From assembly GCA_963833425.1 (NCBI GenBank), contig CAWHXP010000005.1, positions 64,001 through 128,000 of the forward strand: a stretch of 64,000 nt of DNA, given 5' to 3'. This document shows, in pieces, positions 1 through 51,526 of the stretch. A model generated the notes under the pieces. The model saw only the letters and a program-made list of their open reading frames with translations. It ran no database searches and was not told the origin of the DNA. This stretch comes from an uncultured Methanosarcinaceae archaeon. Lineage in GTDB: Archaea > Halobacteriota > Methanosarcinia > Methanosarcinales > Methanosarcinaceae. Each line of letters starts with the position of its first letter. The first letter of the stretch is position 1. The translations under genes and the position numbers were made by a program.

Positions 1-2892
1 GTTGGGGGTTTGAAGACTAATTTTGCAGTTGAATATCTCGCCAAAAACGGGCTTGCTAATATAGAACTTTATAAGCTTGAAGAACTTGCCAAAGGAGTTG
101 ATGGACATCCTCTGGCTCTAAAACTTCTTGTAGAATTAGTAAAGAAATTTGGAGAAGAAGATACCATAGAGGATCTAAATATATATCAGGAACAAAAACA
201 GGACACAATATTAAAAGCGAGAAAGCTCTTTGACAAACTAGTAGGGAAAGAAAAAGCTCTAGTTGAGCGTATTTCTGTCTATCGTGAGCCTGTGAAGATA
301 GAAGGGCTTAAAGAGATGTTTATGGAGAAGACATCTTTAACTGATATTCAAAGGCTTAGGAATAAGTCACTATTAGAAACTGATCTTAGTGGTAAGTATT
401 GGCTTCATCCTCTGGTACAAGAGTTCTCTTACTACGACCTTGAAAACAAAAAAGAAGTACATAAGCTTGCAATGAATTATTACCTTTCTCTATCTATTCC
501 TGAAAAGCCTGTAAAAAAAGAAGATATCCAGTCTCTTATTGAAGCACACTACCATGCCTACACGGCAAAAGAATACGATCAGGCTTTCAACATCATATTT
601 GACAATAAATTGAATGAATATCTTGATCTCTGGGGCAATTATACAGTACTTATTGATCTCTACTCAAAATTATTGCCAGATAATCATTTTAAAACCGAAA
701 TTCTTCTGAAAGATAAAGGAAGTCATGGTATAGTCCTTGGGAATCTAGGGCTAGCATACCGTGATCTTGGAGAGATAAGGAAAGCAATTGAGTATTATGA
801 ACAAGCACTCAAAATTGCTAAAGAAATTGTGGATAGGCAAGATGAAGGAATTTGGCTTGGAAATCTGGGGAGTGCATACAGTGATCTAGGAGAGACGAAA
901 AAAGCAATTGAGTATCTCGAACAAGCACTAGAAATTGCTAAAGAAGGAGACAGGAAAAATGAAGGAATTTGGCTTGGAAATCTAGGGAATGTATACCGTA
1001 ATTTGGGAGAGACGAGAAAAGCAATTGAATATCATGAACAGGCACTAGAAATTGCTAAAGAAACTGGAGACAGGAAAAATGAAGGAGGTCAACTTGGAAA
1101 TTTGGGGAACGCTTACTATAATTTGGGAGAGACTAAAAAAGCAATTGAGTATTTAGAACAGGCACTAAAAATTGCTCAAGAAATAGGAGACAGGCAAGGA
1201 GAAGGAGCAGACCTTGGAAATATGGGGAACGCTTACTATAATTTGGGAAAAACGAAAAAAGCAATTGAGTATTACGAACAGGCACTAAAAATTGCTCAAG
1301 AAATTGGGTACAGGCTAGGAGAAGGAATTTGGCTTGGAAGTCTAGGGAACGCATACAGTGTTCTAGGAGAACAGAAGAAGGCAATTGAGTATTCTAAACA
1401 GGCACTAAAAATTGTTCAAGAAATTGGGTACAGGCAAGTAGAAGGAACTTGCATTGGAAATCTTGGGAATGCATACAAGGATCTTGGAGAACCGAGAAAC
1501 GCAATTAAATATTATGAAAAAGCACTCAAAATTGCTCAAGAAATTGGGGATAGGCAAGGAGAAGGAACAGACCTGGGAAATCTGGGGTTAGTATACAGTG
1601 ATCTAGGTGAGACTAAAAAAGCAATTGGATATTACGAGCAGGCATTGCTAATTTCAAGAAAAATAGGTGATAGACGCGGAGAAGGAACTTGGCTTGGGAA
1701 TCTTGGAAACGTTTACAGACAACTGGATAAGATTACAATAGCAATTGAATATTACAAGCAGGCACTAGAAATTGCTCAAAAAATTGATGATAGACGAGGA
1801 GAAGGTGCAGCTCTTGGAAATCTGGGGTTAGTATATAGTGATCTAGGTGAGATTAAAAAAGCAATTGAATGTTATGAGCAGACTTTGCTAATTTCAATAG
1901 AAGTAGATGATAGACGCGGAGAAGGAATCGCTCTTGGAAATCTGGGATTAGTATATAGTTATCTAGGTGAGATTAAAAAAGGAATTGAACATTATGAGCA
2001 GGCATTAAAAATTTCGAAGGAAGTGGGGAATAGACACGCTGAAGGTGCGATTCTTGGAAATTTGGGGAATGCATATAGCCAAGTTGGTAAGATTACAACA
2101 GCACTTGAATATTACGAGCAGGCTTTGCTAATTTCAAGAGAAATAGGTGATAGACGCGGAGAAGGAAATCGTATTGGAAATTTGGGGTTAGTATACAGTG
2201 ATCTGGGTAAGGTTACAACAGCAATTGAATATTACGAGCAGGCTTTGCTAATTTCAAGAGAAATAGGTGATAGACGCGGAGAAGGGACTTGGCTTGGAAA
2301 TCTAGGGCTAGCATACTCTAATTTGGGAGAACCGAAAAAAACAATTGAATATTTTGAACAGGCATTCAAAATTGCTCAAGAAATCGGGGACAGGCAGGTA
2401 GAAGGAACTTGCATTGGAAATCTTGGGAATGCATACAGTGATCTGGGAGAGACAAAAAAAGCAATTGAGTATTATGAACAGTCACTCAAAATTGCTCAAG
2501 AAATAGGGGACAGGCAAGGAGAAGGAATTTGGCTTGGAAATCTAGGGAGAGCATACTATAATTTGGGAGAGACGAAAAAAACAATTGAATATTTTGAACA
2601 GGCATTCAAAATTGCTCAAGAAATAGGGGACAGACAAGTAGAAGGAACTTGCATTGGAAATCTTGGGAATGCATACAGTGATCTGGGAGAGACAAAAAAA
2701 GCAATTGAGTATTATGAACAGTCACTCAAAATTGCTCAAGAAATTGGGGATAGGCGAAATGAAGAAGTTTGGCTTGAAAATCTGGGGAAAGCATACAAGG
2801 ATCTTGGAGAGACGAAGAAAGCAATTGAATATCATGAACAGTCACTCAAAATTGCTAAAGAAATTGGAGGTAGGCGAAATGAAGGAACTTGA
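1..2892 (+). CDS. STAND/NB-ARC-type protein with C-terminal TPR array (5' part lies outside the window)
   Basis: Frame is open from base 1. GHPLAL (GxP motif) and WLHPLVQEF (winged-helix/MHD-like motif) are followed by 18 ~40-aa repeats EGxxLGNLGxxYxxLGExxKAIEYYEQALxIAxEIGDR. Confidence 0.85.
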   Translation, partial: VGGLKTNFAVEYLAKNGLANIELYKLEELAKGVDGHPLALKLLVELVKKFGEEDTIEDLNIYQEQKQDTILKARKLFDKLVGKEKALVERISVYREPVKIEGLKEMFMEKTSLTDIQRLRNKSLLETDLSGKYWLHPLVQEFSYYDLENKKEVHKLAMNYYLSLSIPEKPVKKEDIQSLIEAHYHAYTAKEYDQAFNIIFDNKLNEYLDLWGNYTVLIDLYSKLLPDNHFKTEILLKDKGSHGIVLGNLGLAYRDLGEIRKAIEYYEQALKIAKEIVDRQDEGIWLGNLGSAYSDLGETKKAIEYLEQALEIAKEGDRKNEGIWLGNLGNVYRNLGETRKAIEYHEQALEIAKETGDRKNEGGQLGNLGNAYYNLGETKKAIEYLEQALKIAQEIGDRQGEGADLGNMGNAYYNLGKTKKAIEYYEQALKIAQEIGYRLGEGIWLGSLGNAYSVLGEQKKAIEYSKQALKIVQEIGYRQVEGTCIGNLGNAYKDLGEPRNAIKYYEKALKIAQEIGDRQGEGTDLGNLGLVYSDLGETKKAIGYYEQALLISRKIGDRRGEGTWLGNLGNVYRQLDKITIAIEYYKQALEIAQKIDDRRGEGAALGNLGLVYSDLGEIKKAIECYEQTLLISIEVDDRRGEGIALGNLGLVYSYLGEIKKGIEHYEQALKISKEVGNRHAEGAILGNLGNAYSQVGKITTALEYYEQALLISREIGDRRGEGNRIGNLGLVYSDLGKVTTAIEYYEQALLISREIGDRRGEGTWLGNLGLAYSNLGEPKKTIEYFEQAFKIAQEIGDRQVEGTCIGNLGNAYSDLGETKKAIEYYEQSLKIAQEIGDRQGEGIWLGNLGRAYYNLGETKKTIEYFEQAFKIAQEIGDRQVEGTCIGNLGNAYSDLGETKKAIEYYEQSLKIAQEIGDRRNEEVWLENLGKAYKDLGETKKAIEYHEQSLKIAKEIGGRRNEGT

Positions 2893-3060
2893 CTTGGAAA
2901 TCTGGGGCTAGCATATAAGAATCTGGGAGAACGAAGAAAACAATTGGGTATTATAAACAGGCACTAAAAATTGCTCAAGAAATTGAAGATCCCAGAATAA
3001 TTGATTTTTGTGAGAGAAATCTTGAGAAATTAAAAATTCGAAAAATAAACTTCTCTGGCT
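2893..3060 (+). pseudogene. Decayed 19th TPR repeat and original C-terminus of the upstream gene
   Basis: After the TGA (where other repeats have TGG/TGC) the frame continues LGNLGLAYKNLGE. After a 1-nt shift it reads KKTIGYYKQALKIAQEIEDPRIIDFCERNLEKLK. Confidence 0.75.
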
Positions 3061-3181
3061 TATGTGCAAAAAATCAGTCTCTGTTACAAAATCGGTGTAG
3101 ACCATCACAATTAAGAAAGTTAATTAATCTCATAACTGCGAAAAATATACAAAACGAGACCCTTCTTCAGACTACCACCAT

Positions 3182-3526
3182 TTGGGAATGATTGCGCAGG
3201 AGCGTCAGAAGTTTGAAGAGGCTGAAGAATTGTATAGAAAAGCGCTGGAGATTTTTGAACGTTTGGGGCTTGAAAGATACGCGGCTGCAGACTACCACCA
3301 ATTAGGAATTGTTGCACAGGAGCGTCAGAAGTTTGACGAGGCTGAAAAATGGTATAGAAAAGCGCTGGAGATGTATGAATGTCTGGGGCTTGAAAGAGAT
3401 GCTGCTACAGGCTATCTTCATTTGGGAATGATTGCGCAGGAGCGTCAGAAGTTTGACGAGGCTGAAGAACTTTATAGAAAAGCTCTAGATATTTTTAGCA
3501 GATCAAAGTCGAAAATAACTAGATAG
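3182..3526 (+). CDS. TPR repeat protein fragment (~3 repeats, probably a 5'-truncated remnant)
   Basis: 120-bp near-identical repeats HxLGxxAQERQKFxEAExxYRKALE. The repeat pattern starts upstream of the ATG (~3170), with no N-terminal domain. Confidence 0.65.
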   Translation: MGMIAQERQKFEEAEELYRKALEIFERLGLERYAAADYHQLGIVAQERQKFDEAEKWYRKALEMYECLGLERDAATGYLHLGMIAQERQKFDEAEELYRKALDIFSRSKSKITR

Positions 3527-3766
3527 ATGTCAAAGGCAATGCTGTACTCTAACAGGCAAATATGGACGATTCGAAAACTCAGACCAAAGCACTTTACGCC
3601 AGAAGAATGTTAAGACCTAGCAAAAAGAAAGCTAAAAGAAAATATGAACAAACAGGCTATGTAGATTAACCTTTAATTCAGGGAAATAGCAAACTTAACA
3701 TAAATTACTTGGGATAATAGAGAAAAAGAAGGCGCCATTTAAATTTTGGTAAACCCTAGCATGATA

Positions 3767-4135
3767 TCATTTCCTATTCATTATTACTACTTCTCCATGA
3801 TCGAAATTTAAAGTGGGATATCCTTCATAACAATTATCACATAACACAGTCACAGTTGGACTTTTACCGCGCTGTCGTATAGTTTTTATCATTCCACATT
3901 TTTCTAACTCATCCAATGCTCTTGGAAAAGCCCAATCAGGGATAGGTAAATGTATATTTATATCTTTCAAGGTGACTACTAAATTTGTAGATTTTTTAAT
4001 ACCTTTTAAGTGCCAAATGTACATAGCCACCCTATAAGTATGCCCAACTGAATTTGAAGGTAGCTTCACAATCCATTCTAAAGGCAATTGGGGTATGAAG
4101 TATCCTTTTATTTTATCTCTAGAATTTACTAACAT
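3767..4135 (-). CDS. Small winged-helix DNA-binding protein, candidate replication initiator
   Basis: 122 aa. C-terminal RALDELEKCGMIKTIRQRGKSPTVTV fits a wHTH recognition helix plus wing. Lies directly downstream of polA and the repeat array. Confidence 0.6.
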   Translation of the reverse strand: MLVNSRDKIKGYFIPQLPLEWIVKLPSNSVGHTYRVAMYIWHLKGIKKSTNLVVTLKDINIHLPIPDWAFPRALDELEKCGMIKTIRQRGKSPTVTVLCDNCYEGYPTLNFDHGEVVIMNRK

Positions 4136-4237
4136 GATTTTACCCCATTTAATATTATTTCTAAATGTTAAGAGTAAATAAATAAGAAATATAAAGATAT
4201 ATAAGTAGTAAAATCACTATCAAAAGGCTTTAGAATT

Positions 4238-4345
4238 TAGCTGTGTAGCTAATTAATTTTAGCTGGAGAGCGAAATACATTTTGCTGTGCAGCTAATTAA
4301 TATTGCTCTATAGCTAGATTGGAATTTGGCTCTACAACTAAATAG
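4238..4345. repeat. Five iteron-like direct repeats, candidate origin or operator array
   Basis: GCTGTGTAGCTAATTA (4240), GCTGGAGAGCGAAATA (4262), GCTGTGCAGCTAATTA (4284), GCTCTATAGCTAGATT (4305), GCTCTACAACTAAATA (4329). Spacing is 22, 22, 21, 24 bp, with a very AT-rich tract at ~4140-4235. Confidence 0.65.
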
Positions 4346-4387
4346 AAAAGTCTGTCCAGGGTTTTTGAGTCTTATTTACGATGTTTT

Positions 4388-6157
4388 TTACTCTTGTTTT
4401 ACTTCTTTGAGTATCCGCATAATAAGATTCCAAGTTTCTGCACCTTTCTCATCTATATACCTTTCAGGATAACGAACAATACCGGCATCTGTTTTCAATC
4501 TGTTACCAGCACCTAGAACAATTTCAGATGCATCACACATCAGCTTTCTCGCTATCTCTATCTCTTTGTCTGCCGCCTTTTCATCGCACTCAATCATCAC
4601 TGCATCGTGAACTGGAGCAACAATTTTAATTTTATTTTCCGAGAGAAGGATGCATGCCACTCTAAGAATTTCAGCTCCAGTAGCTTGAATTGGGAAATTT
4701 CGGACGGTCAACATTTCCTTGTTGCTGGAGCCTGAAACAATCATTTTCCATTTATAGCAGGTTTCAATCCTTTTCATCAAACAGGCTTGAGTCCAGGTCA
4801 TATCTACCCAACGCCAGTAAATTTTAAAAATTCTTTTATGATGACTAAGCAGTTCCTTTGCATAAGGTGTAGGCTTACCAATTTTAAATCCAAGTGATTC
4901 TGCACCCAAGCCATACTGGACACCAAGTACACAAGATTTAAAGAGTTGTCTCGCACTGCCATGCGTTTCTTTTGTAGCGTCTGCTGGAACTGCACCTGCT
5001 AATTTTGCAAAAGCCAGATACGGATCCCCACTTTTATATGCCTCAATCATATTAGGGTCCTTAGAGAGAATTGCTGCAATAAAAAACTCTTGTTGTGAAT
5101 AATCAATATATGCAAGCACTTTTTCCTCAGTCGGTTTTATTAGACTTCTCAGACTAGCAGGAAGTCCAAACATAAACCGAACTCTTAATTCTCCTCTATT
5201 CTTTTTCTCCTCGTCATCCTTTGGGGCATTTCTACCTGTCTTAGTCCAGTAGGGAGAGATTAAAGTTCGACTTCTGCCATCTGAACCAGCCACTATAGAC
5301 TTAAAGTTTAGCCCACCAATAAGAGTTTTTAATTCCTTCAAAGGCCCTATTTCAGGATGGATTTCTGCCATTTCCTTGAATGTTTCCTTATCGGTTTTTG
5401 GCAGACCAGTGTCAGTTCTCGGCCACGCCCAATTGTTGACTTGAATAAATCTCTCAAAATTATTTATTTTAAAACTGGTTCCTTCGTAAATTCCAAATTT
5501 GTCAATATTTTTTATCAGTTTAAATTTTATTTTTTCCCAGTTTTCTTGCAACTCTTGAAGTAGATCGGTATCTATTGGTATACCAGTATATTCGATTTCA
5601 GCCACAGATTTCATATACTCCCCCCGATAGAGAGAAGTGGGTATGTCGAAATCAGGGACCATAATCATTCGTTTGAATAACTCGGCTGTTTCAAGTACGT
5701 CAGATTCGCAATAACTCATAATATATTCTTGATCTTCTTCAGAGTAAGGAGCTCCAGCTAAAATACGATCTCTGGCAGCATCTTTCTCCACTTTGCTAAT
5801 AGTCTCTATGCCAAAAGCTTTACAGGCATCCAGCAGGTTTGCACCTCTTCGTTCATAAGAATGATTAGAAAAGCACCTGTACTCTACGAATGAATCAATT
5901 ACATTGAATGGTAAAGGCCAGCTTAAGACCAGGTGGCACCCCCACTCTGCTGAACTCATATGAGCAACAAATAAATCATTTTCACCTATTGAGTAGGGCG
6001 GCTGATGATTGCTTTCTTCGAAAAGCCACAGTCTTTTAGTTTCTCCAGAAATTATTTCATGGGAAACAACACAAACAGGTATTGGACGTTCGCTAGGCTT
6101 TGCGATAAATTCAAAATCAATCACATAAATATGATTAAAAAATGATAGGGGGAGCAT
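4388..6157 (-). CDS. Family A DNA polymerase (3'-5' exonuclease + polymerase, no 5'-3' exonuclease)
   Basis: ExoI VIDFEF and ExoIII YCESD; TKTGR; motif A AYIDYSQQE; motif B RQLFKSCVLGVQYG; motif C APVHDAV. 589 aa. Confidence 0.92.
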   Translation of the reverse strand: MLPLSFFNHIYVIDFEFIAKPSERPIPVCVVSHEIISGETKRLWLFEESNHQPPYSIGENDLFVAHMSSAEWGCHLVLSWPLPFNVIDSFVEYRCFSNHSYERRGANLLDACKAFGIETISKVEKDAARDRILAGAPYSEEDQEYIMSYCESDVLETAELFKRMIMVPDFDIPTSLYRGEYMKSVAEIEYTGIPIDTDLLQELQENWEKIKFKLIKNIDKFGIYEGTSFKINNFERFIQVNNWAWPRTDTGLPKTDKETFKEMAEIHPEIGPLKELKTLIGGLNFKSIVAGSDGRSRTLISPYWTKTGRNAPKDDEEKKNRGELRVRFMFGLPASLRSLIKPTEEKVLAYIDYSQQEFFIAAILSKDPNMIEAYKSGDPYLAFAKLAGAVPADATKETHGSARQLFKSCVLGVQYGLGAESLGFKIGKPTPYAKELLSHHKRIFKIYWRWVDMTWTQACLMKRIETCYKWKMIVSGSSNKEMLTVRNFPIQATGAEILRVACILLSENKIKIVAPVHDAVMIECDEKAADKEIEIARKLMCDASEIVLGAGNRLKTDAGIVRYPERYIDEKGAETWNLIMRILKEVKQE

Positions 6158-6726
6158 TAAAGCTCACCCCTGAGTTTCTTTAAAACCGGATGGTTATGGT
6201 CATCAATGAACTTGTCCTTGAAAGCTAATTCGATAGCTTTCACCATATTCTCTGGTTCCTCAGGCCATTCCGGGTCTGGAAGTTTACTCATTGATAAGAT
6301 CATGTCGTAAGCTCCAATTGAGTCATTCGTTTGAAGCTTTAGCCATTGAGTTTCAGCTGCTGTGTAAGCTAACCTTCTGGTTCGATTATATTCATGATCC
6401 TTACCATCTGCGTCAGGTTTGGGAATTTCTGAGAGAAAGATTTCACCTGACCCGTAAGTAATGCCGGCGTAAATTCTGACGAGTCTTAACTTTTTTGTTT
6501 CTATTACCTCTGGGTACAGAGCCGGATCGAGAAGAAATTTTCCTTCTCCATCACCTTTTCCACCTAAATCTAAGAGATAAGTGTCAAATTTCCATTCAGA
6601 CCCAGGCCTGATCCTAAAGAATTCCACACCAGGTTTAGGTTTCTTGATTGGGATGGAAGTTACTACACGTTTAACAACGATGGATATAGTTTCAGTAACT
6701 TGGAGAGCCTCAAAGTTAAAAGGCAT
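6157..6726 (-). CDS. Conserved-looking hypothetical protein coupled to polA (possible SSB or polymerase accessory factor)
   Basis: 189 aa with a GGAGG RBS. Its stop overlaps the polA ATG (TAATG). It resembles, from memory, proteins encoded upstream of similar PolA genes in bacterial integrated elements (C-terminus PxPEWP...AFKDKFIDDHNHPVLKKLRGE). Confidence 0.75.
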   Translation of the reverse strand: MPFNFEALQVTETISIVVKRVVTSIPIKKPKPGVEFFRIRPGSEWKFDTYLLDLGGKGDGEGKFLLDPALYPEVIETKKLRLVRIYAGITYGSGEIFLSEIPKPDADGKDHEYNRTRRLAYTAAETQWLKLQTNDSIGAYDMILSMSKLPDPEWPEEPENMVKAIELAFKDKFIDDHNHPVLKKLRGEL

Positions 6727-6880
6727 CTAAAAAACCTCCATCGTTGAAGTAAAATTTTCTAGACTATACATGCGACTGCTAGGTGCAGAGCTAAAAAAGG
6801 AAACTATATTTGATATGGAAACTATATTATTCATGATGCATCACTTTTTATTTATGGGTCGATCTGTTCTTTTGGGTCAC

Positions 6881-7264
6881 TCATGATGAAAGCAAGCATC
6901 CTACAGTGATGGTTTGCGAAATTCCCGACTGCTTGGCCGCTGCGGATATTCGCGAATCACTAACTGCAACGTTTTTAATTAAGATGGCTTTTGCTTTATC
7001 ATATACATACTCTGTTTTGAGTAGCAAAGCAATCCCCAATCTAGTTTTACTGTTTTCAGAGTTGCCTCTCCTCTTATCGATGGATGCTCTTATTGGCAGG
7101 AGACGTGCCTGAGCTATTTTTTCGATTTTGATCATTGTTTTATGTACATTGGAGAGATGATGATCAAGTTCCGCATCTATCGTTAAAGTTTTATTTTTAT
7201 AATATATTATGCATAATGATACCTTCGATATTTTGGGACTTCCCGTAATCTTGCTTTTAAGCAT
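6881..7264 (-). CDS. Hypothetical protein of the element
   Basis: 127-aa ORF with GAGG RBS, overlapped by the stop of the upstream small ORF. Confidence 0.5.
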   Translation of the reverse strand: MLKSKITGSPKISKVSLCIIYYKNKTLTIDAELDHHLSNVHKTMIKIEKIAQARLLPIRASIDKRRGNSENSKTRLGIALLLKTEYVYDKAKAILIKNVAVSDSRISAAAKQSGISQTITVGCLLSS

Positions 7265-7427
7265 TTATCCTCACTCCTACCGTTTTTAATATGTCTTTCG
7301 CAATAACCCGATTTAGAGGATTATCACTTTTCAACATGAGCAATAAAACGTCGTTATTTTGTTCACTAACAAGTCTTGCCCATTCTGAGAACGAAAAAAA
7401 TTTATCTTTTCTGGTTATAGAGTTCAT
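7257..7427 (-). CDS. Small hypothetical protein (56 aa, absent from the ORF track)
   Basis: MNSITRKDKFFSFSEWARLVSEQNNDVLLLMLKSDNPLNRVIAKDILKTVGVRINA. Starts just after the stop of 7429-7638 (AGGTGA RBS) and overlaps the next start. Confidence 0.6.
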   Translation of the reverse strand: MNSITRKDKFFSFSEWARLVSEQNNDVLLLMLKSDNPLNRVIAKDILKTVGVRINA

Positions 7428-7428
7428 T

Positions 7429-7638
7429 TCATTCACCTTCTTTCAGATGGTTGATGTTAATCTCGGTTCCACTGGCCCGGCAAGACTCTACAGGAACTGA
7501 GGTTATGATAATTCTTTGTTCATTGTCCATTTCGATCTTTACGTTTTCAGGATTATCTGACCTGATCCACTGTATTGGCAGTCTAATTAAATAGCTACCG
7601 GCTTGTCTAAATATTGACATTTGGCCTAAATTTATCAT
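7429..7638 (-). CDS. AbrB/MazE/SpoVT-like small DNA-binding protein
   Basis: IFRQAGSYLIRLPIQWIR...VKIEMDNEQRIIIT fits the swapped-hairpin pattern. GAGGT RBS; TATA-like tract at 7679-7690. Confidence 0.65.
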   Translation of the reverse strand: MINLGQMSIFRQAGSYLIRLPIQWIRSDNPENVKIEMDNEQRIIITSVPVESCRASGTEININHLKEGE

Positions 7639-7722
7639 TTAAGTACCTCAATTTTACTTCGATACGATTAACGTCATAATTTTATATATAGATTCTATAT
7701 ATTGGTGAGTAGATTTATTAGA

Positions 7723-7763
7723 ACAACATGTTGTGAGACAAAACTAAATATCCAACATGTTGG
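7723..7763. promoter_or_regulatory. Pair of palindromic operators (core CAACATGTTG) in a divergent promoter region
   Basis: Perfect 12-bp palindromes ACAACATGTTGT (7723-7734) and CCAACATGTTGG (7752-7763). Confidence 0.6.
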
Positions 7764-7797
7764 TAGATTATCAGCATTATTTAAAAGAAGTTACAGC

Positions 7798-8658
7798 ATG
7801 TCTTATAACATGGAAGAAAAATATATCCAGGAAAAAACAATAAAAGATAGAATCTTAGGAAGTTTAGTATATTGTCCGAAAACAAACACTCAACTGTTGC
7901 AAGAGCTGAGTTATAGTAATAAACAACATGGTAATATTTCTAAACAATTACATCAGCTCAAAACAGATGGGTTCATTGTTGATGAAAAAGAAAAATCCCC
8001 AAATATAGATGACTATGCTACGTCATGGTCAATAGTCCCAAGTCTAGAAAATGTTAGATATATAGCAAAAGATCCAGATTTGGTACCAGTGCTGCAAAAG
8101 AAAGATTTTGCTCTTGAAGTTATGGCTGAGAACATTCGTGTTTCAATCATTCCAGATGTTATTGTGGATATAGATGCTATTAGTTCTCTTAAAAGTAAAA
8201 AAATAATTATAGGAGCTAAAGAGGAATTATATTTACTTCTAGAAGAGCCTAAAAGAAAATTTAAGGAAATGTTAAGATTATCTCCTGCATTCTTCAACCT
8301 TCATCTACTCCATGAAGTGTACAACATGATGTCTTGGAGTGATTTTGAAAGGGAAATTGAAGAATTACGATATATAGCTAAATTTCAACTTATCCCTTCT
8401 CTTAAGATAGTAGAGTATTATCTATATCAGAATTCATATGATTTTAAAATGTGTGTTAAAAGAGATATGTTTTTTGAAAAATTAAGTGATGAGAAAAAGA
8501 ACTACTTGATTGAAATAGAAAATTATTTGAATGAAGAAGAAAAAAATAGTGATGCCATCAGAAACTCCATCCTAAAAGTCATCACACATCCTGAATATAA
8601 TTCTGTATTGAAGGAAGAAGAAAAAAATATTAAGACCATCAAAAAAGCCATCATGTAA
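7798..8658 (+). CDS. Putative regulator with N-terminal winged HTH
   Basis: IKDRILGSL...PKTNTQLLQELSY...NISKQLHQLKTDGFIV is an ArsR/MarR-like wHTH pattern. An ATG at 7798 or 7810 is more likely than the TTG at 7702. Confidence 0.6.
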   Translation: MSYNMEEKYIQEKTIKDRILGSLVYCPKTNTQLLQELSYSNKQHGNISKQLHQLKTDGFIVDEKEKSPNIDDYATSWSIVPSLENVRYIAKDPDLVPVLQKKDFALEVMAENIRVSIIPDVIVDIDAISSLKSKKIIIGAKEELYLLLEEPKRKFKEMLRLSPAFFNLHLLHEVYNMMSWSDFEREIEELRYIAKFQLIPSLKIVEYYLYQNSYDFKMCVKRDMFFEKLSDEKKNYLIEIENYLNEEEKNSDAIRNSILKVITHPEYNSVLKEEEKNIKTIKKAIM

Positions 8659-8794
8659 CCGGAATATAATTCTGCATTGAAATAAATTTTCTCTAAATAT
8701 CGTTTTACCTAAATTTCTAAAAATATTAAAAGAATTTGTATTACAATTTATTGTCTAATTGTGGAATTGGTTTCGTTATAGATAGCCATTTAAA

Positions 8795-10126
8795 TTACTT
8801 TTCATTTTTAAGCATGGCCTCCTTTAATGTTGAAATTTCATCAAGCTCCCTTTTTAATTCGTTCTTCATTTCCCATATTTTTTCAAGATCTGCATATTGC
8901 ATATAGTCAGCTTTGATAGATTCGGTGGCTTTCATGTTTTCTATCTCTGCCTTGAGTTCCTGCAGTTCAGATCTTTCGTCTTTTCTTTCCTGTGTCATAA
9001 TGTCAGTAATTCGCTTGTATGCATCTTTATCTTCCTTCATTTGAATGAAAGCGGGGTGCTCCGTAGGATCGATTGATTTTTCAATAGTTAGATATGAGAT
9101 ATATTTTGTATACTCTTCCTTCAATTTCTCAGGGGAAGCTCTATAATATGCCTCGTGTGTCGCATCCAATTGGTGCCCGAGCAGGAAATCCACAAAAAAT
9201 AAACTGGCATGTTCATTGAGTAACGTGGTATTAAAGAATCTCCTCATATTATGTGATCTGTTGATATTATATTCACCACTTCCTGAACTGGTCTGAGCTT
9301 CTTCATTCAGTCTATGATAAATTGATATTATCGTTTCTTTACTTAGCTTTCTGAGCTCTTCTTTATCTTTCATTTTCTTAGCTGTCAGATATTCAAAAGG
9401 CACAGCCCTGGTGACAAACAAATATCCTTCTTTAGTAGTAACACGTTGTTTTTCGAGTTGTTGCTCTTTTATTTTGCTTTTATAATTAGGCTCCCTATTT
9501 CGCCAATTAAGATAATCCTGAATTGCTTTTGAAGCTTCGGGAGATAAGAAAGTATAGAACTCATAGTTTTTCTTTTTTCTGACAAGGTGTAGCGTTGTTA
9601 TGCCTGTCTTTGGGTCATAACCATCTACGAAATCACTAACTCTAAGATTGGAGATATCCACAGCACTCAATCCACTACTGACGCCCACTAACACAAGAGC
9701 ACGCTCAAGGGGATCACAAACATTAAGGATTTTTCTTATATCATCCTTAGTTGGTATTTTCTTTCGTTTTAATTCCGGTCTTGCATTTGTCGTGCCTTTT
9801 GGGAGTACTGGCAACTGAATATTATACAATCTATAGAATGAGCATACTCCAGTCATTCTGCTTTTAATAGTCAGTGGAGCAATATCTTTTCTCTCCAAAT
9901 GTTCTCTAAACTCTCGGAGATAACTGGTTATATTTCTCTCACGCATCAAGAGTCCAGCGCGAATCTCTTTTTCGGCTTCTTCTATAAGCTGTAATGGCGT
10001 GTTATGGGTGAACTCAGTAAATTGCTGCATTGATTGCAAATACACCCTTCTTGTTTCATAAGCCGCTTTGATTCCGGATAGCCAATCCTTAATTATTTTG
10101 TCGTTCTTTAACTCATTAACTTTCAT
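8795..10126 (-). CDS. Tyrosine recombinase/integrase with C-terminal coiled coil
   Basis: SSGLSAVDISNL, SHNMRRFF (HxxR), LLGH and catalytic Tyr region HEAYY. 443 aa. Confidence 0.9.
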   Translation of the reverse strand: MKVNELKNDKIIKDWLSGIKAAYETRRVYLQSMQQFTEFTHNTPLQLIEEAEKEIRAGLLMRERNITSYLREFREHLERKDIAPLTIKSRMTGVCSFYRLYNIQLPVLPKGTTNARPELKRKKIPTKDDIRKILNVCDPLERALVLVGVSSGLSAVDISNLRVSDFVDGYDPKTGITTLHLVRKKKNYEFYTFLSPEASKAIQDYLNWRNREPNYKSKIKEQQLEKQRVTTKEGYLFVTRAVPFEYLTAKKMKDKEELRKLSKETIISIYHRLNEEAQTSSGSGEYNINRSHNMRRFFNTTLLNEHASLFFVDFLLGHQLDATHEAYYRASPEKLKEEYTKYISYLTIEKSIDPTEHPAFIQMKEDKDAYKRITDIMTQERKDERSELQELKAEIENMKATESIKADYMQYADLEKIWEMKNELKRELDEISTLKEAMLKNEK

Positions 10127-10284
10127 TTAAAGTCACATCCTAAAATAAATACCTATACAAATTTATAATTGTATTCATTGATATCCATACAGATGATTCA
10201 CAAAACATAACATTCTATGCTACCATAAACATCACAAATATTTTGACGACAAAAAAATATTTGTGAAGCAACAAAAAAAATATC

Positions 10285-10502
10285 TAGAGAGTATTTCGAT
10301 GATCTCCGATTTTTGGCTGGTTGCTTATTCAAAATTTAGTACTAACTAGTCCCTAAAAAGCAATGCAGATTAATTTCATATAAAATTCTGATCGTGTTCT
10401 TAGTCATTATAGATATTTCGAAAATCATCGATTTCAACAAATTGCTTATATATTGATTATAAGCAACCAGCCAAAAATCGGAGATTATCGAAATACTCTC
10501 TA
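10285..10502. repeat. 44-bp inverted repeat (1 mismatch) around a 130-bp spacer; right arm is part of a ~90-bp MITE
   Basis: TAGAGAGTATTTCGATGATCTCCGATTTTTGGCTGGTTGCTTAT (10285-10328) matches the reverse complement of 10459-10502. Confidence 0.9.
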
Positions 10503-11231
10503 TAAATTTGAGCTTTTTATCATTTTCTGGCTTTTTTGTTATTTTAAATATTGTGTGTTAAAGTCAAGATAGTTTTAGGGATGGAATTGGTACTAAATTA
10601 TGAAAATTACCAAAAATAATGAAATATTACATATTTAATATTATAATATTGTTTGCCTTTATAATTAGTTATGTGGAAACAATTTTTGTTCATAAACATT
10701 TTTTCGTGTAAATAATTAGAAATAAAGTATAGTGCATATTATTTTTGCAGCTTATATCTAATAAATTGTGAGCTAGCAGATACAAATGAAAGAATTGCCC
10801 GGAAGATGTTGTTTAGGAATATTATTGTTCAGGCAATATACCTTTGGAGTTGGGATAAGGAACATAACTTTCAGGAACATAACTTTCCGGGTTTTTCTTC
10901 CAATCATTTTTCAGTTGTGCCCGAATGGGGTAATGCTGTGAACGTTAAAATGACTATGAAATTGTCCCGTCATCGGGATGTAGATTTAAGAAATAGGTAA
11001 CAACAAAAGTAACACTTTTTTACAAATTGTATCTTAATCGAATAATGGTGACGAATGTATGAATGAACTTACCAGTAGATTATTCTTCCAGAAACGAATT
11101 GGACTATTAATTGGTTCATAACGAGTATTATAATAATACAATATTAAGATAAAAATATAGTTCCAAATTTATTATCAAAAATCTAAGGTAAATGGGGGTA
11201 AAATTAAATTGTATAAGTTTGGAGGGATTAA

Positions 11232-12578
11232 TTGAAGAGACAATTGCGATTATTATTTATAGGAACTTATGTTCCAAAGGAGTGCGGAATTGCTACATTT
11301 ACTTATGATCTTTTAAATTCGGTTTCTGTAGGAAATAACGACATTCATTGTGAAGTTATTGCTTTGATTGATCCTTCTGAAAATTATAATTATTCAGAAG
11401 AAGTTGTTTTTCAAATTGAAAGAAACAAACTCGAAGATTACTACCGAGCTGCAGATTTTATAAATCGTTCCGATGCAGACGTTATCTGTCTTCAACATGA
11501 ATTCGGTCTTTTTGGTGGAGAAGCAGGAGAATACATTTTCGCTCTTATATCAGAAATAAGTAAACCTGTAATAACAACAATGCACACTGTGATCCTAGAG
11601 CCTGAACTTGAGTATCAAATATCCACTGAAAAGCTAGTAAGGTATTCCGAAAAGCTTGTTGTAATGAGCCAGACTGCGATCGATATGCTAAAAGATATTT
11701 ATAATGTTTCGGAAGATAAAATAGAATTAATTCATCATGGAGTTCCTGACTATCCATTTAATGAATGTGGTAAGTATAAAAAGATGTTAAATTTGAAGGG
11801 GTCTCCCCTTGTTCTTACTTTTGGCTTGTTGAGCCAAAATAAAGGAGTCGAAAGTATTCTCAAAGCCCTTTCTGATGTTGTAAATCAATATCCTGACCTT
11901 GTTTACCTTATTCTGGGCGCCACGCATCCTATGATCAAAAAGAAATATGGAGAAGCATACAGGCAATATCTTAAGAACATGGTTTCCAAACTTGGGCTTG
12001 AGAATAATGTAGTATTTCATGACAAATTTGTTGAAAAAGAAGAGCTATGTAATTATATCCTCGCCAGCGACATTTATGTATCTCCCTATCTTTCCAGAGA
12101 ACAGATAGTAAGCGGCGCTCTGTCCTATGCCATAGGTATGGGAAAAGCAATCGTTTCCACTCCTTATTGGTATGCTGAGGAAATGCTTTCCGATAATCTC
12201 GGGTTGCTTGTCGATTTTGGAGACACTGAAGGCTTTAAAAAATCACTTTTATACTTAATCGAAAATACAGAAGAGTGCAATAATATGCGCAAAAATGCCT
12301 ATGATTTTGGCAGAAAAATGATATGGGGAAGCGTAGGTAAAGAATATACTACTGTCTTCTATGAAGCATTAAATAACTACACTAACTATCCCGAAATACA
12401 AAACATCGTTAATTTCCTTCCAAATGAGTTGCCTGAAATAAAAGTTGACCACCTTAAGCTATTGACCGATAATCTGGCCAGTATACAGCACACCTATCTT
12501 GGTATACAAGCTCTCCATTATTTTTCCAGGGCTGATGATGGGGGGCAAAAGGTTTCCATCAATCCAAAAAAAAGGTGA
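11232..12578 (+). CDS. Glycosyltransferase family 4, probably C-terminally truncated
   Basis: GTYVPKECGIATF, QHEFGLFGG, IHHGVP, TFGLLSQNKG and SGALSYAIGMGKAIVSTPYWYAEE motifs. GGAGG RBS before the TTG start. Confidence 0.88.
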   Translation: MKRQLRLLFIGTYVPKECGIATFTYDLLNSVSVGNNDIHCEVIALIDPSENYNYSEEVVFQIERNKLEDYYRAADFINRSDADVICLQHEFGLFGGEAGEYIFALISEISKPVITTMHTVILEPELEYQISTEKLVRYSEKLVVMSQTAIDMLKDIYNVSEDKIELIHHGVPDYPFNECGKYKKMLNLKGSPLVLTFGLLSQNKGVESILKALSDVVNQYPDLVYLILGATHPMIKKKYGEAYRQYLKNMVSKLGLENNVVFHDKFVEKEELCNYILASDIYVSPYLSREQIVSGALSYAIGMGKAIVSTPYWYAEEMLSDNLGLLVDFGDTEGFKKSLLYLIENTEECNNMRKNAYDFGRKMIWGSVGKEYTTVFYEALNNYTNYPEIQNIVNFLPNELPEIKVDHLKLLTDNLASIQHTYLGIQALHYFSRADDGGQKVSINPKKR

Positions 12579-12770
12579 TTTAACTTGAAATAAAAATCAA
12601 AAATATAGGAATCCGAAAGGATTGACCGATTGGACTGAAAAATCAATAAGCTTAAAAACCTCAAACTATCCCAATCGTGAATTTGATCATACTGTCTTAT
12701 GTACTTGAATTAAATCCTCAAGTGCGTAAGTCGTAACATATAATAGAACTAAGTATCAGGAGTAAAAACT

Positions 12771-13268
12771 ATGGTAACTGGAGATATTCCATTATTTTTG
12801 ACTGCAAAGACGATAAACGGAGACAAAGTCATCAATATGGCTGGAGAGCATTTGGGAAAGATTGAAGATATAATGATTGATCTAGAAAATGGTAGAGTAG
12901 CATATGCAGTACTCTCTTTTGGTGGGTTCCTGGGTCTTGGGAATAAATTTTTTGCTGTTCCCTGGGAAGCTCTTTCAGTGAGGCCACATGAGCACGCTTT
13001 CGCTCTTGACGTTAGCAAGGAAATACTGGAGAAAGCGGAAGGCTTTGATAAAGACGACTGGCCTTTAACTTGTGAGCAGCTCACCACTTCGACTCATGAG
13101 TGGCTCGCCAATATCTATACTTGCTACGGATGCAAGCCTTATTGGCAGACAGAGATTTTAGAACTGACAGAAAAAGAAAACATAGAAGAAGGAGTTAAAG
13201 TTGAGCCCGTACACCCCTCTGAAAATAGAGGAGGTAAAAAGAGAGGCCTTTTGGACACCTGCAAATAA
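12771..13268 (+). CDS. PRC-barrel domain protein
   Basis: GEHLGKIEDIMIDLENGRVAYAVLSFGGFLGLGNKFFAVPW. Confidence 0.9.
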   Translation: MVTGDIPLFLTAKTINGDKVINMAGEHLGKIEDIMIDLENGRVAYAVLSFGGFLGLGNKFFAVPWEALSVRPHEHAFALDVSKEILEKAEGFDKDDWPLTCEQLTTSTHEWLANIYTCYGCKPYWQTEILELTEKENIEEGVKVEPVHPSENRGGKKRGLLDTCK

Positions 13269-13961
13269 GGAGGCTAAGGTATTAGAGGCTGGTTATTGAT
13301 TAAATTTGATAAAACGAGCTCATGATCCTTTTTTGGGATAATGTTTAGAGATTCTTATGTTTGCTATTTTCAGTAACAAGCAGCCACGGCTCATCAATAT
13401 TCCAACAACAAAATTGTAAGAAACCGACATTGTAGAAAACCAATCTAAATCAGTTTCATGAGGCTGAAAATAAATATGTAAAAATGTATCAGATCATTCA
13501 ATTCAGATTAATGGCTAGTCTTAGTTTCAAAAGATTTATGCACAGTCAAAAAAACAAGATATAACTTTGAATATTAAGAAGAAAACAGAAGCATAAGGGT
13601 ATTTTACACATTGCAATATCAACAATTGCATCAAATTCGAGAGAATAGAATTTGAAAATATATATAGGATTATACGCGGTTGAACTGAGAAATAGATAAG
13701 CTTCTAAACCTCTCACTGTCTCAAAAGTGAATTCGAACACAAAATCTATTGACTTTGATTTGATACTTCAAGTATGTAACTGCTAATACCGTCACTTAAT
13801 AAAATTCATTGGTCAAATTACCTTGACTATGTCACAGTATGAGGTAAAAATGTCATCATTAGATCTCATATGCCAAATATATTATTCATAGTAAAATTTA
13901 TGATCATAAATGGAGTAACTTCTGATATGACAAAGTCTAATTACGATATGGAGAGTAAAAT

Positions 13962-14120
13962 ATGGCGGATTTGATAGGACTTGCGGTTATATTTTTAGTA
14001 TTAGCACTGATTGCATTTATATTGGGCGCACGAGGAATTGCTGGTTTCTCTATGGAGATTGCGAAGTGGCTTATCATAATTTTTATTGTACTTGCAATTC
14101 TCACGTTTTTCTTCAGATGA
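13962..14120 (+). CDS. DUF1328 (UPF0391/YtjA-like) small membrane protein, 52 aa, absent from the ORF track
   Basis: [52 protein letters not shown]: two hydrophobic helices around LGxxGIAG. GGAG upstream. Confidence 0.85.
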
Positions 14121-14264
14121 CAGAAACCTCTAATAAAGTATAAGATATTAATCTAGGACTAACGCAGTTGAAGAGGGCATTTTAATATTTGACCTTTGGA
14201 TAAGGGATTTATATCTAAGATATTATAAAACAATTTTTCAAATTTCCCTTAATTAAATTAGGAG

Positions 14265-14642
14265 TTGAGTTGTATGGGAATAGTTGAAGAAACACAAGTT
14301 GCGAAGAACATGAGTTTCGTGCCGGCAACTGAAATAAAAGGATCTAGGGTTGTCAACGTCAAAGAGGAAAACCTTGGAAAGATTGAAGAAGTGATGATTG
14401 ACCCTGAAAATGGAAGAATAGCATACGTTGTACTTTCTTTTGGCGGCTTGCTAGGGATGGGTAACAAATTATTTGCTATCCCGTGGGACTCTTTTGAGTA
14501 TAATCGCGGTGATTATATTCTGAGGTTGGACAAATCTATCCTAGAAAAAGCAGAAGGTTTCGACGAAGAAGCATGGGCGCTGACTCGTGATGAGTTATTA
14601 TCTGTATATAAGCGCTGTGGGATTCAACCCTATTGGAAGTAA
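14265..14642 (+). CDS. PRC-barrel domain protein (paralog of 12771-13268; start may be a few codons downstream)
   Basis: LGKIEEVMIDPENGRIAYVVLSFGGLLGMGNKLFAIPW. Confidence 0.9.
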   Translation: MSCMGIVEETQVAKNMSFVPATEIKGSRVVNVKEENLGKIEEVMIDPENGRIAYVVLSFGGLLGMGNKLFAIPWDSFEYNRGDYILRLDKSILEKAEGFDEEAWALTRDELLSVYKRCGIQPYWK

Positions 14643-14854
14643 GCAAACCATTTTCGGCTGATTGCATGGAAATTGCTGTTCCCGATCCGATTTTCTCACC
14701 AGAGAAATACAGGAAAAGACGTAAGGTTCTCGGAAATTTCACTATTTTTGAGAACATCCCCTCTTCCATTGATGAATTTATTCACGGATTACGGGTCTAG
14801 GAAGGCAGAAAATGCAGGTTCGAGTCTTGCAAGAGACAAATAAGAGTGAAAATT

Positions 14855-15013
14855 ATGGCAGAAACAGTAGCAATTTGGGAACCGACCGAATATAGGAGTG
14901 TATGTCCACATTGCAGTGCAACAAACTTGAGTAAAATACCAGCTATACGTTATGTTTGTACTGATTGCAACAAAGAATATATGGCTACAGTAGCTCACAC
15001 AGAAGAAGATTAA
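14855..15013 (+). CDS. Zinc-ribbon microprotein, 52 aa, absent from the ORF track
   Basis: MAETVAIWEPTEYRSVCPHCSATNLSKIPAIRYVCTDCNKEYMATVAHTEED; two CxxC motifs. Confidence 0.7.
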   Translation: MAETVAIWEPTEYRSVCPHCSATNLSKIPAIRYVCTDCNKEYMATVAHTEED

Positions 15014-16276
15014 CTTATGCTATCTATCAAAGAGCAAGTCAATTCCAAAACGAAAAATGAAATTCTTCGAATAAAAGGCACCAACAAATGAAAGTACTTT
15101 TTACCTTACTTTTTTTGACTATTGATTTCATTACTACCTTTGGAGTAAAGTTGTACTAGATTTGGTTTTTCAGAACCGTCCCAAAACTAATCAGCGAATT
15201 ACCATCAAGGTTTAAATGTGACTTTAATCAGATATGCCAAATTATCTTTGGAATAATTCCACTGCCTAAATTGATTAAATGATCTGAATGGATCTTTAAG
15301 ATAATTCCACTAGCAAAATTTTTGTTTAGAAGTATATCCAAGCTTCAATAGTTAACGATCTCAGCCCATTTTTTAAAAGTATGAATAGTAATGAAATCTA
15401 GATTATATCCAGGTTTACATCACGCATATTTTGGGGAATTTTTGTGGAAATCAGTGCAATACATCATGATTTCTGAAAGATACAAATCTCTCGGAACTTT
15501 TCTCCCTTAAAGTAAAAATTCTTGAAAAAGTAGGTTACTACCAATCTATGGTCTGATGAGAATTATTCTGTAGCTCGAAACCGAAAGTCTTCAAAGCTTG
15601 CTCTGCAAAGTGTAGAGAGCAGTTCCATCCACTATTTTTCCAGCAACACAATTGACTCTATTAGGACTTACTTATTTTAAAGGACAAAACTAACTACAAT
15701 AGAACATTGTTGTCAAATTCACCATTTAAACAGTTGGAGGTTTAATGTTACTTATTTTGTATCTCAAGTGTGCAAGTCCTATCTATATCTTGTATTTGGC
15801 ACTTCGCCGTTTCGTGTGGGATTGGAAACAATTTTTTAGTTGAAAAGTAACTACACAATAAATAGGCATCGAGAATGGATATAATTTCCATAAATAACTG
15901 TTTGCAAATATAACATATACTTGTTGCATTTAGGAAGTAATTTTAAATAACTAACTCGAAATAACAAAGAGCCTTGTATTTTTTAATCCCTACTCTAAAT
16001 CACTTTTGCTGACATGATTAAGTTAGGTGTTTTATGAGATGATTAGTTTCTTCTTTTGGCTAACACTATCCTACAGAGATTTCTGATAAACTTGATATAC
16101 TATTTTGCCAAAAAAATCTGCTAGACATCGTTCATGTTAAACATTTCAGATTCTAGAGTAGTATAAGTTTTATTTTTTAGATATGTTCTTTTTTGTAATT
16201 TTATGGCGAAGCCAGCTTAAGAACTAAATTGTCTATGATCTTTTGGAGAACTTTTAATAGCTGAATCATATTATTC

Positions 16277-16365
16277 AGAAAATTTCGATGAACCTCCAAT
16301 TTCAACAAATTGTTTACATACGCCTTATAAACAACCAGCAAAAAATTGAATTTATCTAGATCCTC
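16277..16365. mobile_element. ~90-bp IS5-related MITE copy
   Basis: Shares ATTTCAACAAATTG...CAACCAGC with 10410-10502 and 51433-51524. Ends resemble AGAGnATTTCGATAA. Confidence 0.65.
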
Positions 16366-51524: not shown

Positions 51525-51526
51525 AT

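Follow-up and report, generated by a model that had tools for sequence, protein, structure and literature searches.

How could a small integrated element replicate if it brings its own DNA polymerase, yet neither a primase nor a helicase? This question is raised by a 64,000-nt stretch of contig CAWHXP010000005.1, from an uncultured Methanosarcinaceae archaeon, which as a whole is called the window in the following. The element under study occupies positions 3767-10126 of the window and encodes a tyrosine integrase and a family A DNA polymerase (PolA). We know of no use of family A polymerases in archaea, and the described integrative elements with a polymerase of their own use, to our knowledge, family B enzymes. 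An earlier reading of the sequence, referred to here as the original prediction, had singled out PolA, a 189-amino acid (aa) protein and a winged helix-turn-helix (wHTH) protein as a trio that might replicate the element.

The element is real and is a member of a large unannotated family. With modest confidence we regard positions 3767-10126 as one copy, probably truncated at the winged-helix end, of integrative Methanosarcinaceae elements of about 7.5 kb that would replicate by means of the trio and, in complete copies, would be packaged with the help of a virus. Replication by the trio is the best hypothesis that we can offer.

The trio across genomes and the terminase gene of the closest relatives

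In a scan of one genome per species at least 551 of the 597 matched stretches were confirmed. The set analysed here consists of 80 kept loci (numbered with the letter L), nine archaeal and 71 bacterial, the bacteria belonging to at least 11 phyla. All-against-all clustering of the open reading frames (ORFs) of these loci gave two near-universal clusters of about 129 and about 200 aa, which hold the homologues of the 122-aa winged-helix protein and of the 189-aa protein, respectively. PolA is present at 80, the wHTH protein at 75 and the 189-aa protein at 73 of the 80 loci. The trio thus is a conserved module, and the similar bacterial trios that the original prediction had mentioned do exist. 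The gene order is nearly constant. The 189-aa homologue always lies directly upstream of PolA, six of its seven misses being contigs that start inside PolA, and the winged-helix gene lies directly downstream of PolA at 72 loci and upstream of the 189-aa gene at two (L038 and L066).

Linkage to integrases, which had also been predicted, was assessed by the presence of a tyrosine integrase no more than 5 kb from PolA. Using a two-round local profile of tyrosine recombinases, such an integrase was detected at 58 of the 80 loci and at 29 of the 36 loci whose flanks reach 5 kb or more to either side. Of the 58 nearest integrases, 55 share the strand of PolA; 32 are located upstream and 26 downstream. 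At no fewer than 14 bacterial loci the integrase gene is directly adjacent to a tRNA or tmRNA gene. Exact 20-nt copies of the tRNA end, marking attachment (att) sites, bound an element of 12.5 kb in L049 and one of 13.5 kb in L066; of 17 bacterial loci beside a tRNA gene that were searched for such copies in flanks of 10 kb, the other 15 yielded none.

The most frequent further neighbour is a small helix-turn-helix (HTH) protein of AlpA/MerR type (16 loci, plus two clusters of five each), and PF05930 was confirmed for the AlpA-like protein in L029, L030 and L037. The neighbourhood was scanned for the first 150 of the 289 ORFs within 2.5 kb of the trio, which come from 33 of the 63 bacterial loci not annotated before. 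Neither among these 150 ORFs, nor among 90 ORFs of eight further loci, nor in seven archaeal loci was a primase, helicase, capsid, portal or large terminase found, and no Rep protein or relaxase was seen among the 150 and the 90 ORFs. The cargo is variable: a SIR2_2 protein (L049), AAA_15 together with Schlafen/AlbA_2 (L073), DUF499 (L068), a methylase (L066), resolvases and insertion sequence (IS) elements. Judged by gene content, the trio, together with the integrase and the small excisionase-like HTH protein, is all that the islands, which number in the thousands and insert at tRNA or tmRNA genes, have in common. A Cys-rich protein of about 101-146 aa (cluster 15) follows immediately after the winged-helix gene at eight betaproteobacterial or methylotroph loci (L028, L034, L037, L041, L052, L055, L070 and L075); five of the eight were scanned, and these match phrog_3678, whose function is unassigned.

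The original prediction had further supposed that the module was probably acquired from bacteria. The PolA tree does not show this. A branch with an SH-aLRT support of 99 separates 12 archaeal PolA sequences (from Methanosarcinaceae, a Methanoperedens metagenome-assembled genome (MAG) and a Methanocalculus MAG) from 70 bacterial rows, and the archaeal sequences are not nested inside the bacteria. In a tree with three outgroups the bacteria are monophyletic (support 100) and the root falls among the archaeal rows. We do not trust this root because the outgroup branches are about 4 changes per site long and do not form one side of a branch. The topology points to one ancient transfer between archaea and bacteria, in either direction, and the sole argument for a bacterial origin would be the much wider bacterial spread. 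In identity, PolA of the window is 50-91% identical to Methanosarcinales proteins and 41-46% to bacterial ones.

Within the Methanosarcinaceae, the trio of the window is 84-89% identical in DNA (blastn) to five loci, L001-L005, which come from two MAGs with three and two copies per genome. The relatives have a constant gene order: the integrase, a gene for 336-406 aa on the opposite strand, a gene for about 68-78 aa, small genes, the 189-aa gene, PolA, a repeat array and the winged-helix gene. A further gene, for 138-165 aa, is located 0.4-0.9 kb beyond the winged-helix gene, and 7 kb beyond it in L001, where the interval encodes sulfatase, DUF1269, PRC-barrel and SDR proteins. In six of six closest relatives this terminal gene matches a terminase small subunit (phrog_4102, E 2e-20 to 8e-24, positions 9-141 of 166). 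Among virus records the gene is most similar to ORF8 of Methanobacterium virus PhiF3 (30% identity, E 3e-10), the immediate neighbour upstream of the large terminase and portal genes of that virus. A terminase small subunit of a different family (PF05119, phrog_83), together with an HNH nuclease, follows the trio in the Polynucleobacter locus L060 and has a homologue in L061; since the family is another one, independent recruitment is suggested.

The ends of these relatives could be located. A host flank with nifH-nifI1-nifI2, 95% identical between genomes, starts at 13540 in L002 and at 13064 in L006, that is 137 bp and 36 bp past the end of the terminase gene. On the other side, a host MC1 gene is situated just outside the integrase of L005. 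With the nif flank on one side and MC1 on the other, the element consequently measures about 7.5 kb and holds no structural genes. A larger provirus, the outcome that had been set in advance as speaking against the original prediction, is therefore not what surrounds these copies, bounded as they are by nifH (L002, L006) and MC1 (L005). For the relatives, the option of a virus satellite that the original prediction had left beside self-replication is well founded on gene content; for the window copy, which is without the terminase gene, it is a possibility.

Two further observations concern these loci. L002 and L006 are divergent elements, with PolA about 91% and 55% identical to that of the window and with different integrase types, and they share one site upstream of nifH-nifI1-nifI2. 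The Methanosalsum element L009 has two additional genes, at 13295-14170 and 15574-16197, that separate the trio from a tyrosine integrase of the other strand: one for a P-loop protein with HTH that matches phrog_5484 ('DnaA-like replication initiation protein', E 5.8e-12) and, weakly, Zot, and one for a serine resolvase.

The window copy and the parts of its module

All eight ORFs and the repeat array of the original prediction are present in the window at the stated places. The features are as follows.

8795-10126, minus strand: tyrosine integrase, 443 aa (PF00589, E 4.3e-11, 43.3 bits against a cut-off of 27.1)
7702-8658, plus strand: putative regulator, 318 aa from a TTG start, about 286 aa if started at the ATG at 7798 (from its position)
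7639-7797, no strand: control region from which the 318-aa gene and the operon diverge (from reading the sequence)
7429-7638, minus strand: 69-aa protein, first gene of the operon (homologues at the same position)
7257-7436, minus strand: 59-aa protein from a GTG start, 56 aa from the first ATG (ORF list)
6881-7264, minus strand: 127-aa protein, poorly conserved (ORF list, partial matches)
6157-6726, minus strand: 189-aa protein (directly upstream of PolA)
4388-6157, minus strand: family A DNA polymerase PolA, 589 aa (PF00476)
4234-4316, no strand: array of 22-bp repeats (Tandem Repeats Finder (TRF), period 22, 3.9 copies)
3767-4135, minus strand: winged-helix protein, 122 aa (predicted structure, conserved family)
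3807, no strand: break in similarity to complete elements (blastn)

The length of 56 aa given earlier is that of the 59-aa ORF counted from its first ATG. The genes are coupled in an operon as had been predicted: the stop codon of the 189-aa gene and the start codon of PolA overlap in TAATG, and the 69/59-aa and 59/127-aa pairs overlap by 8 nt each. The 122-, 189-, 127-, 59-, 69- and 318-aa ORFs have no match above threshold in Pfam, NCBIfam, PHROGs and PADLOC. In other genomes, homologues of all ORFs of the operon recur with their order preserved, which is more than chance. No primase, helicase or capsid family was found among the proteins of the element with these four libraries, in agreement with the claim made earlier, and with the same libraries and the gene scan of the window no capsid, portal, large terminase or lysis gene was found in it.

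The similarity to L001-L005 extends from 3807/3808 to about 6730-7140. At the winged-helix end it breaks off 40 nt short of the stop codon, inside the 3' end of the gene, and the spacer and terminase gene carried by the relatives are missing to the left of 3807. As the window copy has neither a terminase gene nor a detectable att repeat, it is probably truncated at the winged-helix end and may no longer be mobile. Truncation could have come about through recombination between copies. Without the terminase gene and one end, the copy may be stranded.

The assignment of PolA to family A was confirmed (PF00476 DNA_pol_A, E 4.4e-27, 95.5 bits against a cut-off of 34.3). It also matches phrog_17 (E 7.5e-49), and in a profile search the nearest solved relatives are large fragments of Pol I (best 8jrb, E 2.6e-28). 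The sole PolB-related match, PF10108, has an E-value of 0.044 and is under the cut-off. Among 7,999 candidates scored, 2,987 are related to PolA at E<=1e-3. The protein consists of an N-terminal 3'-5' exonuclease domain and the polymerase, without a 5' nuclease domain. The exonuclease motifs DxE and YxxxD are present, D14 and E16 being nearly invariant and Y149 and D153 invariant. Family A polymerases have the motifs A (D..E), B (R..K..Y) and C (HDE), and the Glu of motif C is important for catalysis in Pol I. In an alignment of 22 sequences D352, E357, R403, K407, Y415, H517 and D518 are invariant. A different family A polymerase, 28% identical and annotated 'bifunctional 3'-5' exonuclease/DNA polymerase', is found on the 12.2-kb cyanobacterial plasmid pAL20118a (L082, NZ_CP149438.1), accompanied by a DnaB-like helicase, a recombinase family protein and a tyrosine-type recombinase/integrase.

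In an exhaustive profile search the family of the 189-aa protein comprises 5,565 cluster representatives with an E-value of up to 1e-3, of which 1,818 reach 1e-30 or better. Every source name seen is 'hypothetical protein', and none has a Pfam domain. Its AlphaFold2 model is confident (pLDDT 92, pTM 0.83). A Foldseek search of solved structures in the PDB gave no match at E<=1e-3, the profile found nothing among the sequences of solved structures, and the ESM Atlas yielded a best score of 0.85 and no named family. A search of predicted viral structures (Foldseek, BFVD) returned a single protein at E<=1e-3, which comes from a Gordonia phage and is uncharacterised (E 5.9e-4); of the 50 best matches, six carry an annotation as single-stranded DNA-binding protein (SSB) or DNA-binding. 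No fused longer forms of the protein were found, which is weak evidence. The residues G108, W128, P152, F169, H179 and G187 are invariant, and aromatic and basic residues are near-invariant. The alignment shows neither a conserved acidic triad nor a Cys cluster, and the protein is therefore not thought to be a primase. We propose that it may serve as a polymerase accessory or ssDNA-binding factor.

The third member of the trio, the 122-aa protein, is predicted by AlphaFold2 to be a winged helix (pLDDT 82). The fold matches the DNA-binding domain of CodY (E 1.6e-3), ArsR/MarR types and, at ranks 12 and 16, the RepA_N initiators 4pt7 and 4pql. A Pfam scan of 44 members of the family gave GntR, MarR_2 and TrmB six times each, HTH_36 three times and RepL once. 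We propose that the protein may be an origin-binding initiator and/or a regulator.

The predicted repeat array (direct-repeat family D4) is located in the gap of 252 nt from the PolA stop codon to the first codon of the 122-aa gene, and an AT-rich stretch follows it. It consists of about 4-5 units of 22 bp, each with a short palindrome, e.g. AGCTGTGTAGCT. Arrays with a period of 20-24 occur at the junction of PolA and the winged-helix gene, taken as -150 to +300 nt around the PolA stop, at 15 of the 80 loci and additionally in L003, where PolA is fragmented; these comprise all nine archaeal loci and seven bacterial ones. At the junction they reach a density of 0.43 per kb, about 30 times the 0.014 per kb found elsewhere in the 1.16 Mb. 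Each unit is a short palindrome; between lineages the unit sequences vary, with the period and the place held constant, as is expected if dimers of the winged-helix protein bind them. With direct repeats of about two helical turns, a putative DNA-binding initiator gene beside them and an AT-rich stretch next to them, the array has the layout of an iteron origin, and we propose that it may be such an origin and/or an operator for the winged-helix protein.

A proposed cycle, its alternatives and known systems

Taken together, these parts suggest the following cycle. The switch at 7639-7797 would hold the operon off. Upon induction the integrase would excise a circle, and dimers of the winged-helix protein would bind the palindromic 22-bp units and mark or open the origin. 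The proofreading PolA would then extend a primer that is not made by the element; most likely this would be the operon transcript crossing the array, as in pAMbeta1 or ColE1, the alternative being a primer from the host primase. The 189-aa protein would act as partner of the polymerase on the displaced single strands. Finally, the terminase small subunit of complete copies would pass the amplified DNA to the large terminase and the capsids of a head-tailed helper virus, in the manner of phage-inducible chromosomal islands (PICIs).

Several observations weigh against replication by the trio or against packaging. Motif C of PolA (residue 519) reads HDA, with Ala aligned to the Glu of VHDE in Pol I. 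This Ala is invariant across the 22 sequences, and HDA was found in 116 of 120 homologues, the remaining four having failed to match the search pattern; the change is a possible sign of different catalysis or metal use. Broken PolA genes occur in L003, L005 and L006, and the 189-aa gene is split or shortened in L002 and L004. These broken genes in the closest MAGs could be real decay or homopolymer errors of long-read assembly. The family is absent from 50,697 phage records, in which the 189-aa protein has no match either; the best phage match of PolA, 31.6% identical and distantly related, stands at the end of an incomplete Silvanigrella phage record with no 189-aa gene next to it. It is likewise absent from 72,556 plasmid records, where PolA matches are at most 28% identical and a bacterial member of the 189-aa family has no match. 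Consequently, no autonomous form is known. Neither an excised circle nor a free replicon nor a virion form was observed, and in none of 31 whole-contig loci do the contig ends overlap. The top PDB match of the 189-aa protein is a weak one to the core of RB69 gp32 (E 0.11, TM 0.30), with PRD1 P12 at ranks 8-9, both of them phage SSBs. The array could equally well be a plain operator. As to packaging, two models of terminase small subunits detect such a gene at only eight of the 80 loci. In the window copy itself, no homologue of the terminase small subunit is encoded anywhere in the 64 kb, and no sensible direct repeat of at least 10 nt that could be an att site was found between 2800-3900 and 10050-11300.

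We considered three alternatives. First, the element could be plasmid-like, integrating and, after excision, replicating autonomously without a helper virus. What looks like a terminase gene in the relatives would in that case serve no packaging, and would have been taken over as an HTH regulator or as a factor that interferes with viruses. This would agree with the 72 loci at which neither terminase model finds a gene, with the window copy, whose other genes are intact without the terminase gene, and with the defence-type cargo of bacterial members, which is typical of islands in general. We consider it unlikely nevertheless: the terminase profile is matched over most of its length (9-141 of 166), the PhiF3 homologue stands in the canonical place before the large terminase, terminase small subunits of two unrelated families, one in archaea and one in Polynucleobacter, hold the same position behind the trio, and the module occurs in no plasmid record.

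Second, the trio itself could be cargo that serves defence, repair or a DNA-synthesis-based immunity, in which the winged-helix protein would be the regulator and the array the operator. The unusual motif C, the lack of primase, helicase and Rep, and the defence genes near the trio at some loci would fit such a role. The PADLOC model RTasPolA, which is filed under defence-associated reverse transcriptases (DRT), matches PolA with an E-value of 2.4e-28. This match is, however, no stronger than that to the generic Pfam model, there is no reverse transcriptase nearby, and the term 'RTasPolA' was not found in the full-text literature searched; we rejected it as evidence for defence since it is a generic polymerase match. 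Moreover, the constant partner of the integrase across phyla is the trio and not any cargo, and a place beside integrase and excisionase-like genes with palindromic repeats of two turns is the layout of a replication module. A role as cargo therefore appears improbable to us.

Third, the abrupt end of similarity at 3807, a further 4 kb or so that L002 and L004 have in common past the integrase (88-90% identity), and the roughly 7 kb between the wHTH and terminase genes in L001 might suggest a piece of a larger provirus or plasmid with its primase, helicase and structural genes outside 3767-10126, but this is scarcely tenable: the rest of the window is ordinary chromosome with no virus structural, primase or replicative helicase gene, host nif genes begin 36-137 bp past the terminase gene in L002 and L006, the integrase of L005 borders on the host MC1 gene, and the 7 kb of L001 encode no virus genes.

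Returning to replication by the trio, the primer is the step for which known plasmids offer a model. In ColE1 and in pAMbeta1/Inc18 plasmids a family A polymerase extends a transcript-derived primer at the origin, and the origin of pAMbeta1 lies just downstream of the gene of the plasmid's initiator, which binds it. Similarly, the operon transcript of the window must cross the array between PolA and the gene of the DNA-binding protein. These plasmids use Pol I of the host, whereas the polymerase is self-encoded here, as would be necessary in an archaeon without Pol I. The analogy is proposed as a possible mechanism and not as homology.

A second comparison is the replisome of phage T7, in which the family A polymerase gp5 works with the SSB gp2.5 and also needs a primase-helicase and thioredoxin. 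T7 likewise has a proofreading family A polymerase without 5' nuclease, and the pair of PolA and the 189-aa protein would parallel gp5 and gp2.5 if the weak SSB lead holds. In sequence the systems are far apart: no phage PolA exceeds 32% identity, and for the 189-aa protein no match among phages was found.

The overall layout resembles that of satellites. PICIs such as the Staphylococcus aureus pathogenicity islands (SaPIs) replicate with modules of a primase and an initiator-helicase. They and the tycheposons share with the present elements the format of a small site-specific island with an integrase, a divergent pair of putative regulators heading an operon, and a replication module of its own; the integrase and the divergent pair are found in the window, L001, L002, L004, L005 and L006. 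Like PICIs, the six closest relatives have a lone terminase small subunit and lack genes for capsid, portal and large terminase. Together with integrase, switch and putative replication module, this gives them a satellite layout of PICI type. The elements differ from PICIs in having PolA and two small proteins and, in the element as in its relatives, no primase or helicase; in their archaeal host, a size of about 7.5 kb and an integrase co-directional with the operon; and in that the window copy is without the terminase gene. A tycheposon preprint mentions PICI-like forms with terS or MCP (major capsid protein) and 'polymerases, primases, helicases'.

Casposons and pipolins are also integrated elements that bring their own DNA polymerase. 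Theirs are of family B, protein-primed or primer-independent, and casposons integrate by Cas1, whereas here the polymerase is of family A, there is no Cas1 and no priming activity is predicted. Pipolins are described as flanked by direct repeats and carrying tyrosine recombinases.

Among archaeal satellites, pSSVx, pSSVi and the haloarchaeal SRCE satellites have been proposed to exploit the morphogenesis machinery of a helper virus. They differ from the present elements by spindle-shaped helpers, capsid or ATPase homologues and replication by Rep or primase-helicase, and none is tied to head-tailed viruses or has a terminase subunit. A 2025 preprint names pSSVi and pSSVx as the only archaeal satellites described before it. 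Within the literature covered, which extended neither to subscription journals and supplements nor to the most recent weeks, no PolA-based integrative element and no terminase-bearing archaeal satellite is described.

We tentatively extend the proposal beyond the window. A third kind of 'self-synthesising' integrative element is conceivable, with a family A polymerase, a member of the 189-aa family and an iteron-binding winged-helix initiator, present in thousands of bacterial islands and a methanogen clade and started without primase from a transcript or another borrowed 3' end; its Methanosarcinaceae branch would contain the first PICI-like satellites of archaeal head-tailed viruses. If the trio is a replicon, it is of a new, very common and unannotated type, and the way in which a polymerase-only module obtains its primer becomes directly testable. 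The terminase gene of the methanogens, in turn, points to satellites of tailed archaeal viruses. Cultured carriers are M. mazei with DU38_05225/05230, Methanolobus sp. ZRKC3 and Methanosalsum natronophilum AME2.

Regulatory genes, integrase and surroundings

The integrase assignment of the original prediction stands, with PF00589 well above its cut-off. The protein also matches phrog_1 integrase (E 1.9e-20) and, under the cut-off of that model, XerA_Arch of NCBIfam (1e-17). The integrases that occupy this position in L002, L004 and L008 share 38-41% identity with it. The tail of the window integrase (its last 48 or so residues, 8798-8941) is 60-63% identical to the tails of integrases of a second type in L001, L003 and L006, and the DNA similarity of L002 and L005 begins inside the 3' end of the integrase gene (L002 7414). 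As this tail is common to two otherwise unrelated integrase types, the boundary at which integrases are swapped lies within the gene.

A 'divergent wHTH regulator' had been claimed next to the integrase. The 318-aa gene is indeed divergent from the operon; its product matches no family, which makes the wHTH label a weaker point. It has weak homologues (25-37% identity) in the same place and orientation in L002, L004 and L005, and ORFs of 336-406 aa fill its place in L001, L002, L005 and L006. It is a putative master regulator of the switch, a role that is deduced from position. The control region contains a palindromic site with the core CAACATGTTG in two copies 29 bp apart, detected as direct repeat D13 at 7724-7738 and 7753-7767, and an AT-rich stretch; the palindromes would act as operator.

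At the head of the operon, the 69-aa protein has homologues of 31-37% identity at the same position in L002, L004, L005 and L006. For the 'AbrB-like' nature ascribed to it the one sign is its L004 homologue, which matches PF04014 with an E-value of 0.003, under the cut-off, and a fold of AbrB/MazE type is possible; the gene itself is where it was predicted. For the 59-aa protein homologues of 50-63% identity are found in L001, L003 and L006. The 127-aa protein gives partial matches of 41-45 residues (39-49% identity) in L002 and L005. An Rfam scan of 3000-11300 gave a single match at chance level (mir-4850, E 0.093).

To the left of the element a fragment of a tetratricopeptide repeat (TPR) gene extends over 3182-3526. 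Three 120-nt tandem repeats at 3153-3512, 77-85% identical to the reference copy, encode TPR units and belong to this gene fragment, which abuts the truncated end. On the right, the integrase is followed by an inverted-repeat element, a glycosyltransferase gene and PRC-barrel genes. The inverted repeat (10278-10328 and 10459-10509) has arms of 51 nt that are 94% complementary and 130 nt apart; because 10415-10478 is 91% identical to L004 18069-18132, outside the L004 element, it has the look of a small repeat resembling a miniature inverted-repeat transposable element (MITE).

The chromosomal part of the window includes aro genes, SRP54, TruD and genes for the synthesis of riboflavin and pyridoxal phosphate (PLP). 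The original prediction had called the surrounding window rich in pseudogenes. ORFs of 90 aa or more, taken without overlaps, account for 61% of it, a transposase fragment is located at 61777-62148, and no tRNA gene was found in 1-20000. Copies of an intergenic repeat of 100-240 nt lie at 48190-48306, 51515-52630, 59408-59520 and 61507-62395, and are 72-79% identical to the DNA immediately upstream of the second-type integrase in L001, L005 and L006. This repeat could belong to a family used as integration target, or could just be a genus-wide intergenic repeat. Finally, two overlapping genes at 39845-43178 encode a 446-aa protein without family match and, after it, a 675-aa HerA-like ATPase (PF01935, PF05872); the pair may be a defence or DNA-processing system.

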